A DNA stretch of 64,000 bases from an uncultured Oceanospirillales bacterium. GTDB taxonomy: Bacteria > Pseudomonadota > Gammaproteobacteria > Xanthomonadales > SZUA-36. Positions 753-30,891 of this stretch are shown here, piece after piece; position 1 is the first letter of the stretch; each line of letters opens with the position of its first letter. The stretch is from positions 680,842-744,841 of the forward strand of contig CAJXKA010000001.1 of NCBI GenBank assembly GCA_913055655.1. The letters are read 5' to 3'. The translations under genes and the position numbers were made by a program. The notes beneath the pieces were generated by a model. The model searched no databases. It saw only the letters and a list, made by a program, of their open reading frames with translations, and had not been told where the DNA came from.

Positions 753-1127
753 TCAGGACCTGGGCCGATAGTTCACACCGGCCAGTCCTTCGAAATCGCT
801 GTCCTGGGTCCACAGTGTCGCGTTCCACGCCTGGGCAGTGGCGAAGATGATGCTGTCGGCCAGTGGCAACTTATGTCGTAATCCAAAATCCGCGGCGCTG
901 ATCGCCAGGTTGGCATCCAGGTCCACCACCTGCGCGTTGCGCATATAGGCTGAAACTTTCAGCGCCTCATGCTCCGAAACTTCGCGCGAGAGGTGCTTGA
1001 AGACTTCCGTGATCGTGACCGTGGGCACCACGAGCTGGTCAACGGCCTCCAGGGCCGGGGCGAACCAGTCCGCGTTCGGCTCTTCGGCCAGGTAGGACAG
1101 CCAACCGGAGGAGTCCACGACGTTCAC
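753..1127 (-). CDS. vapC: PIN-domain ribonuclease toxin VapC
   Basis: GTG start. Begins VNVVDSSGWLSYLAEEPNADWF and ends in DSIIFATA...TQDSDF, typical PIN acidic residues. 4-nt overlap (GTGA) with the upstream antitoxin. Confidence 0.85.
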   Translation of the reverse strand: MNVVDSSGWLSYLAEEPNADWFAPALEAVDQLVVPTVTITEVFKHLSREVSEHEALKVSAYMRNAQVVDLDANLAISAADFGLRHKLPLADSIIFATAQAWNATLWTQDSDFEGLAGVNYRPRS

Positions 1128-1330
1128 AGCCGGTCCGGGTCTCGTTCGATGTGCGTGTCGATGCCCTCGTAACGACCGCGCATCTCGCGGATCGATCGTA
1201 TGGGCACCAGCTCGATCCGGCCCTTGTAGGCCAGCACCTGGATTTTCTCGCCGGGTTCGAGGTTCAGCGACTCCCGGACATCTTTGGGAATGACGACCTG
1301 GAATTTGGGTGAGAGGGTGACGGTTGTCAT
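1124..1330 (-). CDS. vapB: AbrB/MazE/SpoVT-type antitoxin (VapB)
   Basis: 68 aa: MTTVTLSPKFQVVIPKDVRESLNLEPGEKIQVLAYKGRIELVP. SpoVT-AbrB fold signature; overlaps the vapC start. Confidence 0.8.
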   Translation of the reverse strand: MTTVTLSPKFQVVIPKDVRESLNLEPGEKIQVLAYKGRIELVPIRSIREMRGRYEGIDTHIERDPDRL

Positions 1331-1362
1331 ACGATATCTCCATCGATACAAAAATCGTATGA
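1327..1362. promoter_or_regulatory. Putative vapBC operator palindrome
   Basis: 9-bp inverted repeat TCATACGAT (1327-1335) / ATCGTATGA (1354-1362) with an inner ATCGAT. It spans the vapB start codon and leader. Confidence 0.35.
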
Positions 1363-1575
1363 CAAGTATAGCTGAGCAGACTGCCCGGTGAAGTCGGAAA
1401 TGTTCAGGGATTGTTGTAAGAGGGTGTCGCCTGGCGGCGCGATTGGCCTTGACCTTGATTTCCGCGCCAAGGCCCTGATATCTCCAACGCCAGGGTGACA
1501 AAATCCTGTAAAATACGTGGTTGGCGGTTCGTGCCGCCCGGCCCGGCCTGTTCCCCGAATTGAGTCAGCCAGCAA

Positions 1576-1701: not shown

Positions 1702-3012
1702 ATGCAAGTCACAGTTGAGAATCCGGGCGGCCTGCAGCGCCGCCTGACCGTGCAGGTTCCGGCCGGCGAAGTCCAGCAGCAGATCGACGCGCGCCTGCGC
1801 GAGATCGGCAAGACCGCACGCCTGAAAGGTTTCCGTCCCGGCCGCGTGCCGATGAAAGTGCTGCAGCAGCGCTTCGGCCCCTCGGTCCGCAACGAGATCG
1901 TCTCCAAGACGGTCGAGTCCAGCCTGGCCCAGGCCATTCGCCAGGAGTCGCTGAAGCCGGCGGCCAACCCGGTCATCGAATCCGTGCCGGAAGTGAAGGC
2001 CGACAAGGACTTCGAGTTCACGGCCACCATCGAGGTGATGCCGGAAATCGACAAGGTCGACACGGCCGCCATCGAGGTCAAGTCACCGGACGCGGAAATC
2101 ACCGAGGACGACATCGACGACATGCTGAACACGCTGTGTGAACAGCGCGCCACCTGGGAAGAGGCCAACCGCCAGCCCAAGGACGGCGACCAGGTGCTGA
2201 TCGAATACGCCGCCGACACCAAGGACGGCCGCGTGCCGGAAGAGGGCATGTCGCGCCTGGCGATCGTCATGGGCCAGTCCGGTTTCGACAAGCTGGAGAA
2301 AGTCCTGGCCGACCTGACCACCGGCGGCGTCACCGAGACCAAGCTGAAATTTCCCGACGATTTCCGCGAACAGGCCCTGGCCGGCAAGAAGGCGGACGTG
2401 TCACTGAAGATCGACAGTGTGCGTGAAAAGCACCTGCCGGAAATCGACGCCGAGTTCATCCAGTCCTTCGGTATCGAGAGTGGCGACATGGACGAGATGC
2501 GCAGCGAGGTTCGCAAGAACCTGGAGCGCGAGATGAAAGGCGCACGCCTGACGCTGTTGAAGACCCAGATCCTGAACGCGCTGCTGGCCAGCCATGAAGA
2601 CCTGGAAGTGCCCGAGGGCCTGGTCCGCCAGGAAGCGGCGCAGTTGCTGCAGACGCAGGCACGCCAGCGCGGCTTCGAGCCGGATCCGTCCATGCTGCCG
2701 CAGTTCAGCGACGTTGCCCGCAAGCGCGTCAAGAGCGGCCTGCTGATCAGCGAGATTGCCCGCCAGAACGACATCATCGTCGACGGCGCCAAGGTGCGCG
2801 AGGCAATCGAGTCGGTGGCCAGCACCTACGAGCAGTCGCGCGAAGTGGTGCAGATGTACTACAACAACCCCGAACTGTTGAACTCTGTCGAGGGTTCGGT
2901 ACTCGAAGAGCAGGTGGTTGACTGGGTGCTGGATCACGCTAAAGTGAACACCGAGGCGATGAGCTTCAAGGACCTGATTAACGCGGCCGCCCAATCGAGG
3001 CAGGGATTATGA
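1702..3012 (+). CDS. tig: Trigger factor
   Basis: 436 aa starting [21 protein letters not shown]... with ...GFRPGRVP; position upstream of clpP-clpX-lon. Confidence 0.97.
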
Positions 3013-3644
3013 GCAACGCCGGCGCGATGGATACGCGAGCACTGAACCTGGTGCCCATGGTGGTCGAACAGACCTCCCGGGGCGAGCGCGCGTACGATAT
3101 TTACTCGCGCCTGCTCAAAGAGCGTGTCATCTTCATCGTCGGCCCGATCGACGATCACACCGCCAACCTGGTGGTTGCGCAGCTGCTGTTCCTGGAGTCC
3201 GAGAACCCGGACAAGGACATCAATATCTACATCAACAGCCCGGGTGGCTCCGTCACCGCGGGCCTGGCCATTTACGACACCATGCAGTTCGTGAAGCCGG
3301 ACGTCTCCACCATGTGCGTGGGGCAGGCGGCTTCCATGGGCGCGGTGCTGCTGGCCGCGGGCGCGAAAGACAAGCGTTACGCACTGCCGCACTCGCGGGT
3401 GATGATTCACCAGCCGCTGGGCGGCTTCCAGGGCCAGGCCTCGGACATCGATATCCATGCCCGGGAAATCCTGAAAATCCGCGAGCAGCTGAACGAGCTG
3501 CTGGCCGGTCACACCGGACAGGACGTGGAAAAGATCGCGCGCGATACCGAACGTGATCATTTCATGGGTCCGGCCGAGGCGCAGGACTATGGCCTCGTCG
3601 ACCGTGTTCTTGACAGCCGTAGCGGCGACAAGGACAATGCCTGA
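3009..3644 (+). CDS. clpP: ATP-dependent Clp protease proteolytic subunit
   Basis: Contains [17 protein letters not shown], the catalytic context GQAASMGA, and HQPLGG. ATGA overlap with tig. Confidence 0.97.
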
Positions 3645-3682: not shown

Positions 3683-4948
3683 ATGACTGATAAAGAACAG
3701 AATTCCACGGACGGCAAGATCCTCTACTGTTCGTTCTGCGGCAAGAGCCAGCACGAGGTCCGCAAGCTCATTGCGGGCCCCAGCGTGTATATCTGCGACG
3801 AGTGCGTCGAGCTCTGCAACGACATCATCCGCGAGGAGCTTGAGGACGCCGGCGTCGCCGATCGCGAATCGCTGCCCATTCCGAAGGAAATCCATTCCTT
3901 CCTGGACGAGTACGTCATTGGCCAGGAACAGGCCAAGAAGGTGCTGTCGGTGGCGGTGTACAACCACTACAAGCGCCTGGAGCCCGGTCGTCGCGAGGAA
4001 GAGGTGGAACTGGCCAAGAGCAACATCCTGCTCATCGGCCCCACCGGTTCCGGCAAGACGCTGCTGGCGGAAACGCTGGCGCGCATGCTCAACGTGCCGT
4101 TCACCATCGCCGACGCGACCACGCTCACCGAAGCGGGCTACGTTGGCGAAGATGTCGAGAACATCATCCAGAAGCTGCTGCAGAAGTGCGACTACGACGT
4201 CGAGAAAGCCCAGACGGGCATCGTCTACATCGACGAAATCGACAAGGTCTCACGCAAGGCCGAAAACCCGTCCATCACCCGCGACGTGTCGGGCGAGGGC
4301 GTGCAACAGGCGCTGCTGAAACTGATCGAGGGCACCATCGCCTCGGTGCCGCCCCAGGGCGGCCGCAAGCACCCGCAGCAGGAATTCCTGCAGGTCGACA
4401 CCTCGCAGATCTTGTTTATCTGTGGCGGCGCCTTCGCCGGCCTGGAAAAAGTCATCCAGGACCGCTCCACCAAGTCCGGCATCGGCTTCTCCGCCGAGGT
4501 CAAATCGAAAGAAGCCCGCGTCGACATCGGCGAAGTGCTGGCCGAGGTCGAACCCGAGGACCTGGTCAAGTACGGCCTGATCCCCGAATTCGTCGGCCGC
4601 CTGCCGGTGGTCGCCACCCTGCGCGAGCTCGACGAGCACGCCCTGGTGCGCATCCTCACCGAACCCAGGAACGCCCTGGTCAAGCAGTACCAGCAACTGT
4701 TCGACATGGAAGGCTGCGAACTCGACATCCGCGACGACGCCCTGCACGCCATCGCCCGCAAGGCCATGGCCCGCCGCACCGGCGCCCGCGGCCTGCGCAC
4801 CATTCTCGAATCCGTGCTGCTCGAATCGATGTACGAATTGCCGTCCATGGAAAATGTCTCGAAAGTCGTTGTCGACGAGACGGTCATTGAAGGCGATGCG
4901 GAGCCTTTGATGCTGTATGAGAATGCGCAGCAGGCTGCCGACGGTTAA
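3683..4948 (+). CDS. clpX: ATP-dependent Clp protease ATP-binding subunit ClpX
   Basis: N-terminal zinc finger CSFCGKSQ...CDEC; Walker A GPTGSGKT; 421 aa. Confidence 0.98.
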
Positions 4949-4968
4949 TCGGGGAATCGGGGAATCGG
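4947..4968. repeat. Tandem octamer GGAATCGG, about 2.75 copies (inverted partner of the 5445-5527 array)
   Basis: AATCGGGGAATCGGGGAATCGG starts inside the clpX TAA stop codon. It is the exact reverse complement of the downstream array unit. Confidence 0.9.
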
Positions 4969-4984
4969 TTAGAGAGCAAGCCCG

Positions 4985-5392
4985 TCAGGGGCTGGTTGCC
5001 AGTTGCTTGTCGAGGCTTTTTAGCAGGCCGAAGAGTAGGGCGTAGAGTCGGTCGATTTTTTGCTCCAGTTCTTCCAGGTTGATGTTGTAGCCCAGGTTGT
5101 TGCACAACAAGATCTGGGTTTCTATTTCTGCGAGAGAGCCCCGGGCCATCAGGGTAAATCGCCTCAAATCCCGTTTTGAATTTCTCGCGGCGCCTTCGGC
5201 GATGTTCGAGGGTATCGAAACGGCTGCCCGCCGCAACTGGGCACACAACCCAAACCGCTCATGATCAGGTAGTCCGGACGTGTTCGCGTAGATGGTTTCT
5301 ACAAACTTCATGGCAACTTGCCACAACTGAAGTTTGAGATGAGCGCGATACACGGGTTTGGGCGTCTTGTTTTCCACACAAAAATTCTCCAT
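4985..5392 (-). CDS. Four-helix-bundle protein (23S rRNA intervening-sequence protein / Avd-like family)
   Basis: 135 aa with LWQVAMKFVETIY...ERFGLCAQLRRAAVSIPSNIAEGAAR...ARGSLAEIETQI, the hallmark of this family. GC is about 50% against a background of about 65%. Confidence 0.85.
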   Translation of the reverse strand: MENFCVENKTPKPVYRAHLKLQLWQVAMKFVETIYANTSGLPDHERFGLCAQLRRAAVSIPSNIAEGAARNSKRDLRRFTLMARGSLAEIETQILLCNNLGYNINLEELEQKIDRLYALLFGLLKSLDKQLATSP

Positions 5393-5444
5393 CGCCAGGC
5401 ATCAAAAAGATATGGCGCGTTTCCTTTTTGGCTGTAGACTTTTT

Positions 5445-5527
5445 CCGATTCCCCGATTCCCCGATTCCCCGATTCCCCGATTCCCCGATTCCCCGATTCC
5501 CCGATTCCCCGATTCCCCGATTCCCCG
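5445..5527. repeat. Tandem octamer CCGATTCC, 10 full copies plus a partial copy
   Basis: Perfect 8-nt periodicity counted from 5445 to 5524, plus CCG. Confidence 0.97.
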
Positions 5528-5528
5528 T

Positions 5529-5557
5529 TTGAAAACGCGCCACGCCAGTCCCATATT
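5529..5557 (+). promoter_or_regulatory. Putative sigma-32 (heat-shock) type promoter of lon
   Basis: CCCCGTTTGAAA (TTGAAA at 5529-5534), 15-nt spacer, then CCCATATT at 5550-5557. About 95 nt upstream of the lon ATG. Motif match only. Confidence 0.35.
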
Positions 5558-5651
5558 CGATACAGCGAAGGCAGGAACCTCCCAGCCTTGATGTATCCTT
5601 GAATTGCCACGTGCCGCGAACGCCTCGCGGCCACCAGACACGGGTCCCCGA

Positions 5652-8063
<2,412 letters not shown>

Positions 8064-8625: not shown

Positions 8626-8701
8626 GGGTGCTTAGCTCAGCTGGGAGAGCATCGCCCTTACAAGGCGAGGGTCGGCGGTTCGAGCCCGTCAGCACCCACC
8701 A
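8626..8701 (+). tRNA. tRNA-Val (UAC)
   Basis: Anticodon arm TCGCC-CTTACAA-GGCGA; T loop GGTTCGAGCCC; CCA. Confidence 0.95.
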
Positions 8702-8713
8702 GTAAGTTACAAC

Positions 8714-8790
8714 GGAGTGGTAGTTCAGTTGGTTAGAATACCGGCCTGTCACGCCGGGGGTCGCGGGTTCGAGTCCCGTCCACTCCGCCA
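8714..8790 (+). tRNA. tRNA-Asp (GUC)
   Basis: Anticodon arm CCGGC-CTGTCAC-GCCGG; T loop GGTTCGAGTCC; CCA. Confidence 0.95.
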
Positions 8791-8800
8791 ACGTTGTAGA

Positions 8801-10800: not shown

Positions 10801-10819
10801 GGTTACGCTTCGTGGACCG

Positions 10820-10933
10820 TCCCTGGGGAGGGGGTTGCCTTTCCCGGGGAACGCTGTGAACCCATCCATGGGCGCTTATCGGCGGCATCCCTGCCGCCGA
10901 AATCCCCGGGAAAGGCAACCCCCTCCCCGGGGA
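10820..10933. repeat. Nested palindromic element, copy A (about 114 nt)
   Basis: 30-nt arms at 10820-10850 and 10903-10933 are near-perfect reverse complements. The core carries CGGCGGCATCCCTGCCGCCG and matches the cores of copies B and C in reverse orientation. Confidence 0.85.
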
Positions 10934-10971
10934 CTGCCGCGCTGCGGGCCGTGAGGTTGGGATGCATTTTG

Positions 10972-11089: not shown

Positions 11090-11198
11090 GGGATCGGGGC
11101 GATTGCCTGGACAGGGGCCTTCGGCGGCAGGGATGCCGCCGATGAGCGCCCATGGACGGGTTTATAGCGTGCCCCTGGCCAGGTAATCGTCCCGATCC
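11090..11198. repeat. Nested palindromic element, copy B (about 109 nt)
   Basis: Arms GGGATCGGGGCGATTGCCTGGACAGGGG / CCCCTGGCCAGGTAATCGTCCCGATCC. Core: TCGGCGGCAGGGATGCCGCCGATGAGCGCCCATGGACGGGTTTATAGCG. Confidence 0.8.
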
Positions 11199-12011: not shown

Positions 12012-12090
12012 TCAACTCATCCTTCTTCGATCAGGTTAAGACTGCCGCAATCATACACGCATTCCCAGATATGAAGTCGCAACGACGCAG

Positions 12091-12202
12091 TCCCCGGGCT
12101 GGGATTGCCTGACCCGGGGATTTCGGCGGCAGGGAAGCCGCCGATAAGCGTACACGGATGTATTCACAGTGCTCCCCGGGACAGGCAATCCCAGCCCGGG
12201 GA
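12091..12202. repeat. Nested palindromic element, copy C (about 112 nt)
   Basis: Arms TCCCCGGGCTGGGATTGCCTGACCCGGGGA / CTCCCCGGGACAGGCAATCCCAGCCCGGGGA. The core TTTCGGCGGCAGGGAAGCCGCCGATAAGCG... is homologous to copies A and B. Confidence 0.85.
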
Positions 12203-12225
12203 CGGTCGACGGAGCGGCGCCGCCC

Positions 12226-29467: not shown

Positions 29468-30844
29468 TTGGCCTCAGATGTTGTTAACGCCCGGCTTTAC
29501 CCGGCGGGCATGCTTACTTCCTTATCCCGCAGCGAAGTCGAACGGCTGCATGACGCCAGCCACGGCGAGCTCTATGAGCTGCTCCGCCGCTGCTCGCTGG
29601 CCGTGCTCAACAGCGGCAACGAGTCCGATGACGCCGAGGCGCTGCTGGCCGAGTTCAAAGACTTCGATATCACCGTGGAACAGTTCAACCGCGGTATCCG
29701 CCTGGAACTGTGCAACGCGCCGGGCATTGCCTTTGTCGATGGCAAGATCATCGAGGGCGTGCGTGAGCTGCTGTCCGCGGTCATCCGCGATCTCGTCTAT
29801 TACGACACCGAGATCGGCAGTAACCCGGCCTACAGGATGGACACCGGCGAGCAGATCACCAACGCGGTGTTCGAGATCCTGCGCAACGCCAACATCATCC
29901 AGCCGCGCGTCGAGCCGCACCTGGTGGTGTGCTGGGGCGGGCACTCCATCAGCCGCGCCGAGTACGAGTACACCAAGCTGGTGGGCTACGAACTGGGCCT
30001 GCGCAAGCTGAATGTCTGCACGGGCTGTGGCCCGGGCGCCATGAAGGGCCCGATGAAGGGCGCCACCATCGGTCACTCCAAGCAGCGGGTGAAGAACGGC
30101 CGCTACATCGGCGTGACCGAGCCCGGCATTATTGCCGCCGAGTCGCCAAACCCCATCGTCAACGAACTGGTCATTCTGCCGGACATCGAAAAGCGCCTGG
30201 AGGCCTTCGTGCGCCTGGGCCACGGCATCGTGGTGTTCCCCGGCGGCGCGGGCACCGCGGAGGAAATCCTCTACCTGCTGGGCATCCTGTTGCACCCGAA
30301 GAACGCCGACCTGCCGTTCCCGGTGGTGTTCACCGGCCCCGCCGGCTCCGCCGCCTATTTTGAGCAGATCGACAAGTTCATTCGCTTGACCCTGGGCGAC
30401 GAAGCGGCCGCGCGCTACCAGGTCATCATCGACGACCCGGTGGCCGTGGCGCAGACCATGCAGGCCGGCCTGGCGGAAGTCGGCGAATTCCGCAGCGAGG
30501 TCAAGGACGCCTGGTACTACAACTGGCGCCTGCAGATCGACGAGGACTTCCAGCGCCCCTTCGAACCCACCCACGCCGCCATGGCCGGCCTGGAGATCCA
30601 CCGCGACCTGCCGGTGCACGAGCTCGCCGCCAACCTGCGCCGCGCCTTCTCCGGCATCGTCGCCGGCAACGTCAAGCCGAACACGCTGGCCGCCATCCGC
30701 GCCGGCGGCAAGTTCGAAATCAGCGGCGAGAAGGCGATCATGGACAAGCTGGACGGGCTGCTTTCAGAGTTTGTGGCGCAGCACCGGATGAAGCTGCCCG
30801 GGGTGGCTTATGAGCCTTGTTACCGGGTTGTGAGTGGGGAGTAG
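29468..30844 (+). CDS. ppnN: Pyrimidine/purine nucleotide 5'-monophosphate nucleosidase PpnN (LOG family, YgdH)
   Basis: 458 aa; TTG start. The N-terminus aligns from memory with E. coli PpnN (CSLAVLNSG...). LOG motif PGGAGTAEE. Confidence 0.88.
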   Translation: MASDVVNARLYPAGMLTSLSRSEVERLHDASHGELYELLRRCSLAVLNSGNESDDAEALLAEFKDFDITVEQFNRGIRLELCNAPGIAFVDGKIIEGVRELLSAVIRDLVYYDTEIGSNPAYRMDTGEQITNAVFEILRNANIIQPRVEPHLVVCWGGHSISRAEYEYTKLVGYELGLRKLNVCTGCGPGAMKGPMKGATIGHSKQRVKNGRYIGVTEPGIIAAESPNPIVNELVILPDIEKRLEAFVRLGHGIVVFPGGAGTAEEILYLLGILLHPKNADLPFPVVFTGPAGSAAYFEQIDKFIRLTLGDEAAARYQVIIDDPVAVAQTMQAGLAEVGEFRSEVKDAWYYNWRLQIDEDFQRPFEPTHAAMAGLEIHRDLPVHELAANLRRAFSGIVAGNVKPNTLAAIRAGGKFEISGEKAIMDKLDGLLSEFVAQHRMKLPGVAYEPCYRVVSGE

Positions 30845-30891
30845 TGAGTGGTGAGTGGTAAGGGCGTTTGGGCTTGAGGCGCCAGGTGCGG

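Follow-up and report, generated by a model that had tools for sequence, protein, structure and literature searches.

We analysed a 64,000-nucleotide stretch of genomic DNA from an uncultured Oceanospirillales bacterium (GenBank contig CAJXKA010000001.1, positions 680,842 to 744,841; GTDB Xanthomonadales, SZUA-36), referred to here as the window, in which a small gene cassette lies between clpX and lon. The cassette consists of a gene for a four-helix-bundle protein of the family found in 23S rRNA intervening sequences (IVS), encoded on the strand opposite to both neighbours and bracketed by two tandem octamer arrays in inverted orientation. Its neighbours are tig, clpP, clpX, lon, hupB, tRNA genes, and ppiD, all of them housekeeping genes. 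The features of the locus, in window coordinates, are as follows.

3683–4948, + strand: clpX, the upstream host gene (Pfam zf-C4_ClpX and AAA_2), whose final codons and TAA overlap the first, degenerate array unit
4946–4948, + strand: the clpX stop codon TAA
4941–4968, + strand: short arm, the degenerate unit ACGGTTAA followed by (AATCGGGG)x2.75; G-rich on this strand and, on the strand of the cassette gene, the 3' C-rich arm (GATTCCCC)n
4969–4984, − strand: 16 nt separating the four-helix-bundle stop codon from the short arm (family median 8 nt)
4985–5392, − strand: four-helix-bundle gene (PF05635 / TIGR02436, S23p/XCC0516-like), 135 aa from the ATG at 5392
5393–5444, − strand: leader of 52 nt from the long arm to the ATG; most family members have a shorter one
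5445–5527, + strand: long arm, (CCGATTCC)x10.4; on the gene strand, the 5' G-rich array (GGGGAATC)n
5529–5557, + strand: promoter-like site TTGAAA-N17-CATATT, directly 3' of the long array
5652–8063, + strand: lon, the downstream host gene, its ATG at 5652 chosen from an alignment with relatives

Anatomy and insertion state of the clpX–lon cassette

An initial annotation, made from the sequence alone, had called a 135-aa opposite-strand four-helix-bundle gene between two arrays at this junction, and all of its coordinates were confirmed. Its estimate of about 50% GC against about 65% in the surroundings also held, with a measured content of 0.49–0.555 over 4900–5500 vs 0.60–0.71 in clpX and lon. 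The clpX–lon gap spans ~703 bp, of which the cassette with its arrays takes up 581 bp. Tandem Repeats Finder resolved both arrays at a period of 8 with 100% matches, giving 2.8 copies for 4947–4968 and 10.4 copies (score 166) for 5445–5527, and the short and long arms are exact reverse complements. The left array runs one degenerate unit into clpX (ACGGTTAATCGGGG vs ACGGGGAATCGGGG), and the TT of this unit makes the clpX TAA stop. A two-unit probe with at most two mismatches found 11 matches in the 64 kb, every one within the two cassette arrays (shuffles expect 0.08); this probe detected no copy of the unit elsewhere in the window, and the window contains no second four-helix-bundle gene. A metagenome contig from the Joint Genome Institute (JGI) with identical clpX and cassette gene stops inside the long array, an assembly break, so the copy number of 10.4 needs confirmation.

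When the minus-strand RNA of positions 4940–5535 was folded, a perfect 22-bp stem with 4 further pairs formed around the open reading frame (ORF) in both the minimum free energy and centroid structures (z-score −4.3; 0 of 100 shuffles equal). The identical 22-bp stem also forms on clpX read-through RNA, and no Rfam family matched in 4700–5800. On the plus strand, the promoter-like site beyond the long array can also be read as TTGAAA-N15-CCCATATT, which fits the sigma-32 heat-shock consensus (CTTGAAA ... CCCCATnT) expected for lon. Because this site directly follows the long array, the clpX stop and the putative lon promoter lie on either side of the cassette. The last CCCCG of the array falls where heat-shock promoters often have a C-rich stretch ahead of the −35 element, and changes in array length might therefore alter the context of the lon promoter.

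The family assignment of the protein is supported by profile, structure, and sequence comparisons, which place it among the 23S-IVS/S23p four-helix-bundle proteins. It matched PF05635 with an E-value of 3.2e-31 (108.1 bits; cut-off 33.8) and TIGR02436 with 4.3e-32 (110.6 bits; cut-off 24). The gene caller's database product is 130 aa long and fits a GTG start at 5377 behind GGAG, and the true start is probably this GTG with its GGAG Shine-Dalgarno sequence. An AlphaFold2 model (mean predicted local distance difference test score 94.4) shows four long helices after a 4-residue turn. A Foldseek search with this model retrieved 2GSC (XCC0516; template modelling (TM) score 0.81/0.93, 49% identity) and next BT_0352 (2RLD; TM 0.70/0.83), and the sole PDB sequence match was again XCC0516 (2GSC; E 1.7e-29, 47–49% identity). 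A 30-sequence alignment that includes the window protein has 27 invariant columns, all of which this protein shares; they fall in the motifs RRAAVSIPSNIAEGxxR and RGSxxExxTQ. In total, 6478 proteins matched at E ≤1e-5, the closest besides the window's own product being 46–58% identical. We know of no function assigned to the thousands of free-standing genes annotated as 'four helix bundle protein', nor, to our knowledge, has a biochemical function been established for XCC0516. None of the PADLOC defence models gave a family match at E ≤0.01. A phage origin was considered and rejected, with just 15 relatives in 2.9 million viral contigs, though several of these also bear arrays.

Scanning metagenomes with ClpX yielded 80 loci at 73–84% identity, ~70 of which include the start of lon. 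In these, the clpX–lon gap is mostly 24–450 bp, with one gap of 806 bp and one of 2298 bp, and none of the ~70 junctions holds a four-helix-bundle gene, in keeping with the annotation's premise that this junction is normally a short spacer. Such arrays were likewise absent from the longer clpX–lon spacers inspected. Subtracting the 581-bp cassette from the ~703-bp gap leaves ~122 bp, a typical spacer size. The comparison with relatives thus indicates that the cassette is an insertion in this lineage, placed between the clpX stop and the presumed lon heat-shock promoter. The annotation had further proposed to read the empty site from close relatives; at 73–84% identity the spacers are not alignable, so presence and absence can be stated, but not exact boundaries or a target-site duplication.

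The inverted bracket across the family

The first three homologues that we examined, from Panacagrimonas, Porticoccus, and a European Nucleotide Archive (ENA) contig (loci L001, L002, and L003), each lie in a metK-ahcY-metF operon on the operon strand, and each has its own flanking inverted repeat of ~7-nt units, with sequences that differ among the three. We then scored this bracket across the family. For this, 80 further loci were fetched, one genome per species. The 190 nt preceding the conserved core were compared, without gaps, with the reverse complement of 205 nt surrounding and following the stop, and the best match gave the bracket score, which was obtained for 81 homologous loci. The window scored 22 vs a shuffle maximum of 8; shuffle scores averaged ~7.7 and never exceeded 13. 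A score of at least 12 was reached by 62 of the 81 homologous loci vs 5 of 547 control ORFs from the same loci (Mann-Whitney p 2e-37), and a score of at least 20 by 36 of the 81, while no control ORF reached 18 (0/547). The annotation's suggestion of a discrete module gains strong support from these scores.

The 62 bracketed modules share a common design. Their outer span has a median of 451 bp and the typical ORF is ~115–145 aa long. Upstream arrays have a period of 7 in 42 of 46 cases and of 8 in the other 4, and downstream arrays a period of 7 in 47 of 51 and of 8 in 4. The 5' arm is richer in G than in C in 56 of the 62; since an inverted pair reads identically on both strands, this G-first polarity is a trait of the pair and not of the direction of the ORF. 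The units themselves are lineage-specific, among them TGAGGAG, CGTGAAA, GGGATTC, AGCCACGA, AAGGTTAA, TGAAGTT, and AGAGGCC, and the homologous loci span many phyla. Several Xanthomonadales carry a GGGAATC unit, one G short of the window unit GGGGAATC. Arrays have a median of 4 units per side whether or not the unit holds a GGG, which would make it G-quadruplex-capable. In 36 of the 62 modules the arrays lack any GGG tract, so the G-quadruplex cannot be their shared property. One locus (L009, 2958–3626) has a partial extra four-helix-bundle copy (3001–3144) directly before the full copy (3188–3529), together with an additional array at 2958–3008, an arrangement that suggests a tandem duplication or nested modules.

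The modules also favour a particular type of host site. Of the 62 modules, 56 have an open frame of ≥100 codons on their own strand that terminates beside the 5' arm, and the distance from this upstream stop to the arm has a median of 3 nt and falls within 20 nt either way in 45 of the 62. Both neighbours are co-oriented with the module in at least 43 of the 62, a lower bound because neighbour strands were called by the longest ORF, which mis-assigns some high-GC loci (e.g., the accB side of locus L019). Clustering of the neighbours revealed recurring sites: accB|accC in 11 Xanthomonadales, ahcY|metF in 8 loci, and metK|ahcY in 4, with a GDP-mannose dehydratase gene (gmd) as a neighbour in 10 loci.

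Against this background, the window copy is atypical. It has the inverted 7–8-nt arrays and the G-rich 5' arm of the class but not the co-orientation with its operon; only 3 of the 62 modules, this one included, run antisense to the genes on both sides. An 8-nt unit and a long leader (52 nt) also set it apart, as do its arms, which at 10.4 vs 2.75 copies differ by a factor of 3 or more, a lopsidedness shown by only 3 of the 62; in the other lopsided loci listed, the expanded array is likewise the 5' array of the ORF. Though antisense, the window copy still has one arm overlapping the clpX stop codon. Recombination between the inverted arms could flip the cassette, which would explain this rare antisense state.

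The accB|accC modules form an orthologous set. In Xanthomonas arboricola (L019) the module exactly fills the accB–accC spacer: the accB stop is followed after 5 nt by the first array, and the second array ends at the accC ATG. At 3400–3442 of this locus the accC ATG immediately follows the C-rich array, with no Shine-Dalgarno sequence. The match between the X. arboricola module protein and XCC0516 is full-length (E 2.9e-69). The GGGAATC array (L019 2990–3040) itself codes for the N-terminal residues of the X. arboricola protein, the counterpart of MENRES in XCC0516. In several homologues, the C-terminal tail (e.g., ...SPIPNPQS) is the translated 3' array. Among the accB|accC orthologues the ORFs are under purifying selection, with dN/dS of 0.06–0.27, and the unit drifts from GGGAATC to GGGATTC to TTGGTGA with the arms remaining complementary; irregular units are mirrored in the opposite arm. 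The accB|accC module appears to be vertically inherited across the Xanthomonadales rather than recently mobile. Compared with the window copy, modules of this XCC0516 type share a close protein and the same design and differ in host site (accB|accC, not clpX|lon), in orientation (it is the window gene that runs opposite to its neighbours), and in having a heptamer rather than an octamer.

Together, these loci define the bracketed ORF as a widespread and conserved class of module, whose free-standing form is apparently undescribed. Our literature search found nothing that ties free-standing PF05635 genes to flanking inverted short-period arrays outside rRNA, or to the Xanthomonas or cyanobacterial repeats, though its coverage was incomplete and an earlier description is possible. 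The PF05635 gene family, the rRNA IVS, and heptameric simple sequence repeats (SSRs) are each known separately; what appears to be new here is their suggested connection and the clpX|lon site.

Likeness to 23S rRNA intervening sequences and evidence from transcripts

The annotation had compared the cassette to the IVS of 23S rRNA, and the published IVS of Coxiella supports the comparison. The Coxiella IVS is 428–444 nt long, lies in helix 45, and has a 28-bp terminal stem with an S23p ORF in the loop; Coxiella RNase III cuts it mid-stem in vitro, as mapped by rapid amplification of cDNA ends (Warrier et al., PMC4990558). Its 5' region has two or three tandem GACAGAT heptamers, in a number that varies among strains, and the 5' cut lies where the first heptamer repeat begins (PMC4990558). 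The free-standing modules match this IVS in the S23p / PF05635 protein in the loop (as in those of Leptospira, Brucella, and Haemophilus), in size (median 451 bp, with 581 bp in the window), and in having heptamers of unstable copy number and a stem comparable to the ~28 bp, or four times seven, of Coxiella. In the window, the terminal stem of 22 bp plus 4 pairs encloses the whole element. Unlike an IVS, however, the window element lies in a spacer between protein-coding genes and not in an rRNA helix (9, 25, or 45), and it is therefore IVS-like by anatomy rather than an IVS by definition. It further differs in its 8-nt unit, its unequal arms, and its antisense gene, and its cleavage is putative. 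The ORF of the Coxiella IVS is decaying and probably untranslated, whereas free-standing copies are under purifying selection.

We estimate a probability of about 0.6 that the roughly 590-bp cassette is an IVS-type insert that is insulated or processed via a long-range RNA stem. Whichever strand is transcribed, the two arrays would pair into a long perfect duplex (22 bp + 4) that loops out the ORF. In length and kind this duplex resembles those cut by RNase III in the rRNA versions, and we propose that such a duplex would leave the insert insulated from the host transcript or excisable, so that it does little harm. With tandem units, pairing would be independent of register, and slippage would allow fast evolution, which would explain both the 10.4 vs 2.75 copies and units that are lineage-specific yet complementary. 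The typical module occupies the spacer directly after a stop codon in a housekeeping operon, and the rRNA-resident form of the same design would be the ORF-bearing IVS. RNase III may cleave the cassette stem, the protein may confer some benefit or regulate its own expression, and the expression of clpX or lon may be affected.

Transcripts of the Xanthomonas orthologues provide some evidence on this point. RNA-derived Xanthomonas contigs (9 and 12 kb) extend from accB across the module and both its arms into accC, and shorter contigs cross each arm. Assembled contigs can show co-transcription but not ends, so we turned to raw reads, mapping three stranded runs (2026) on the X. vasicola accB|accC locus (L069). 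Sense reads cover the locus without a gap from accB to accC, module included, and accBC is thus co-transcribed with the module in Xanthomonas. Depth drops by 40–60% across the 5' arm, from ~400 to 135–255, is uneven within the module, and reaches a V-shaped minimum of 128–169 at the end of the 3' arm beside the accC ATG before recovering to ~250–270. One run has 60 fragment ends at position 3428 in the 3' arm, at a depth of 300; these were called as beginnings, but the depth profile fits RNA 3' ends better, and we report them only as a pile-up of fragment ends. The coverage breaks at both arms are suggestive and compatible with partial cleavage. In this X. vasicola copy (L069 ~3310–3450), a 7-nt insertion, CAGCCAG, shifts the C-terminal frame; the arms are kept and the locus is well transcribed. 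It looks like a decaying ORF in a retained stem, as in Coxiella.

Several observations weigh against an IVS-type insert acting through its stem. No clear bracket was found in 19 of the 81 homologous loci. Processes at the DNA level (gene conversion between inverted repeats, or template switching), and not selection on RNA, could keep the arms complementary. In the window itself, we found no consensus promoter in the 52-nt leader or upstream of the 5' array on the gene strand, so the gene's own mRNA may lack the 5' arm; the ~22-bp duplex that the annotation had foreseen on this transcript does fold, but no predicted promoter places the 5' array on it. No public run was near-identical to the window sequence, the best containing only 7–8% of the sampled words. 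In Xanthomonas, 30–55% of the flanking depth persists across the arms, so cleavage is partial at most, and the dips could also stem from poor reverse transcription, from fragmentation of structured RNA, or from the filtering of multi-copy reads. The Xanthomonas stem has 3–4 mismatches and is therefore a poor model for the perfect stem of the window.

Arrays without the gene and competing explanations

Arrays of this kind are not restricted to the flanks of the gene. The module's own unit recurs elsewhere in 14 of the ~6-kb loci, and several of these recurrences are convergent ORF-less pairs with loops of 25–125 nt. One such pair, of the GAGACGT type with a loop of ~125 nt, fills the ahcY–metF spacer of L003 (5820–6006), one gene downstream of an ORF-bearing module with the identical unit between metK and ahcY; in eight other loci, this same ahcY–metF spacer houses an ORF-bearing module. 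Other RNA contigs from the Xanthomonas runs also bear the array of the module. In Xanthomonas, ~185 GGGAATC arrays were counted per genome, including 70–75 convergent pairs, preferentially ≤50 bp after stop codons and often overlapping them, between co-oriented genes and with four units favoured (Rehm et al. 2015, PMC4692102). Repeats of this class form G-quadruplexes in vitro and their function is not known; S23, four-helix, IVS, and intervening-sequence genes did not come up when that text was searched by term (PMC4692102). The GGGAATC and GGGGA(C/T)T repeats of Xanthomonas and Nostoc resemble the arrays of our modules in having nearly the same unit, in lying between co-oriented genes with the G-rich strand at or overlapping a stop codon, and in their frequent convergent inverted pairs, preference for about four units, and variation in length between close relatives. 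They differ in that they have been treated as G-quadruplex-forming SSRs, whereas here the pair encloses a PF05635 gene and most arrays of the family are not G-quadruplex-capable. The annotation had held that arrays lacking the gene would speak against a module; such arrays are indeed common in Xanthomonas and also form ORF-less pairs in our loci, so that the objection half applies, but they are clearly linked to the gene family. Within the window, we observed one solo G-rich heptamer array, (GTGAGTG)x4.3 at 30830–30859, which overlaps the stop codon of an ORF at 29468–30844 and has no complementary partner within ~200 nt. Its unit is of the kind that flanks four-helix-bundle genes in other taxa (e.g., L049), and it may be the lone arm of a former module.

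The recurrence of lineage-specific units, both within the 14 loci and at ~185 arrays per Xanthomonas genome, is what would be expected if the protein itself recognised the arrays, in RNA or single-stranded DNA and perhaps with one unit per ring subunit. In such a protein-plus-repeat system, similar in logic to REPIN-RAYT, the protein would spread, maintain, or autoregulate via the arrays, the module with its ORF would be autonomous, the ORF-less pairs and solo arrays (GGGAATC in Xanthomonas, heptamers in cyanobacteria) would be non-autonomous derivatives, and the stem would be secondary. The strong conservation of the protein, with its invariant core RAAVS.PSNIAEG.AR and purifying selection, also fits, as do arrays of ~4 units regardless of G-quadruplex capability. 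XCC0516 is a pentameric ring, and Avd binds RNA (PMC4990558; 8ub* structures). However, no nuclease, recombinase, or polymerase domain can be recognised in the protein, and the units diverge between loci whose proteins are ~50% identical, so that rapid co-evolution of specificity would be needed. The window contains no further copy of its unit, the accB|accC module seems vertical in the Xanthomonadales, and binding of arrays by free-standing members is hypothetical. The likeness to REPIN-RAYT extends to a gene between inverted short, genome-specific repeats with additional gene-less copies; the cassette differs in lacking a Y1 transposase and in having tandem 7–8-mers in place of REP (repetitive extragenic palindromic) palindromes, and its mobility is hypothetical. 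On balance, we regard a protein that acts through its arrays as an unlikely account, though as the main rival to an IVS-type insert.

A broader proposal joins this idea to the IVS comparison. Three topics have so far been separate: the ORF-bearing 23S IVS, whose origin has not been known since the early 1990s, the free-standing genes, and the heptamer repeats. The sequence comparisons suggest that these are facets of one element type, with a fixed design, a preference for sites immediately behind a stop codon within highly expressed operons, and an RNA stem open to testing with RNase III. A structured insert in essential operons such as accBC, the methyl cycle, and clpX-lon could affect their expression. 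More speculatively, this element class would have the ORF-bearing modules as its autonomous form, the heptamer hairpins of Xanthomonas, cyanobacteria, and others as its gene-less derivatives, and the 23S IVS as its rRNA form, and the ring protein would read its own 7–8-nt repeat at about one unit per subunit to spread or maintain the arrays or to control release from host transcripts. TRAP, for comparison, binds GAG repeats at about one unit per subunit. We consider this full scheme improbable as it stands and offer it as a conjecture.

The stem could instead act without being cut, as a structural element that bridges stop and start codons, so keeping their coupling, or that serves as a 3' stabiliser or attenuator, in the window at the end of the clpPX mRNA and before a separately promoted lon. 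The close fit of the arms to the upstream stop and, in Xanthomonas, to an accC ATG that lacks a Shine-Dalgarno sequence is consistent with such a role, as is the fall in depth across the 5' arm after accB. The window clpX is not followed by a canonical terminator, and lon has its own promoter-like site directly past the cassette. The stem has no U-tract, however, and is therefore not an intrinsic terminator; the rRNA versions are cleaved by RNase III (PMC4990558), and an uncleaved element leaves the conserved ORF in the loop unexplained. We thus judge a purely structural role to be rather improbable.

Two further explanations were rejected. The arrays could be ordinary GGGNATC-class G-quadruplex SSRs that flank an unrelated hypothetical gene by chance: the 8-nt unit GGGGAATC is GGGAATC plus one G, the class sits ≤50 bp from stop codons between co-oriented genes and forms G-quadruplexes in vitro (PMC4692102), and the position of the window array at a stop codon between co-oriented genes fits. 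The 64 kb contain no such array beyond the two of the cassette, however; the bracket goes with the gene family (62/81 loci vs 5/547 controls), and the 36 of 62 modules without GGG keep both the ~4 units and the inverted layout, which makes a chance association very unlikely. Least likely of all, to the point of being negligible, is a remnant or orphan Avd accessory gene of a diversity-generating retroelement (DGR): the annotation had placed the protein in one family with Avd, and there is indeed similarity in the four-helix-bundle, pentameric fold (4DWL, TM 0.67/0.80) and in profile (a weak match to PHROG 'Avd protein of DGR', E 1.7e-5), with PF05635 being the commonest accessory family near DGR reverse transcriptases (PMC10053308), but the relationship is distant (8–10% identity; 16.9 bits vs a cut-off of 80 for the NCBIfam Avd equivalog NF033474), the nearest relatives lie in metabolic operons and not in DGRs, and no reverse transcriptase is found among the neighbours and no template/variable repeat pair within 16 kb, in agreement with the annotation, which saw neither.

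Other features were also noted. Just upstream of tig is a toxin-antitoxin pair of the PIN-domain / MazE type (window 753–1501; L004 71–648), and clusters of tRNA genes are found at ~283–564 and ~8664–8791. Downstream of ppiD, a repeat of ~90–115 nt occurs three times (10819–10934, 11098–11188, and 12090–12203), the copies being 76–83% alike, and two of the three are hairpins with near-perfect 31–32-nt arms (GTCCCCGGG...CCCGGGGAC). These repeats look like REP or miniature inverted-repeat transposable element (MITE)-type elements that are unrelated to the cassette.

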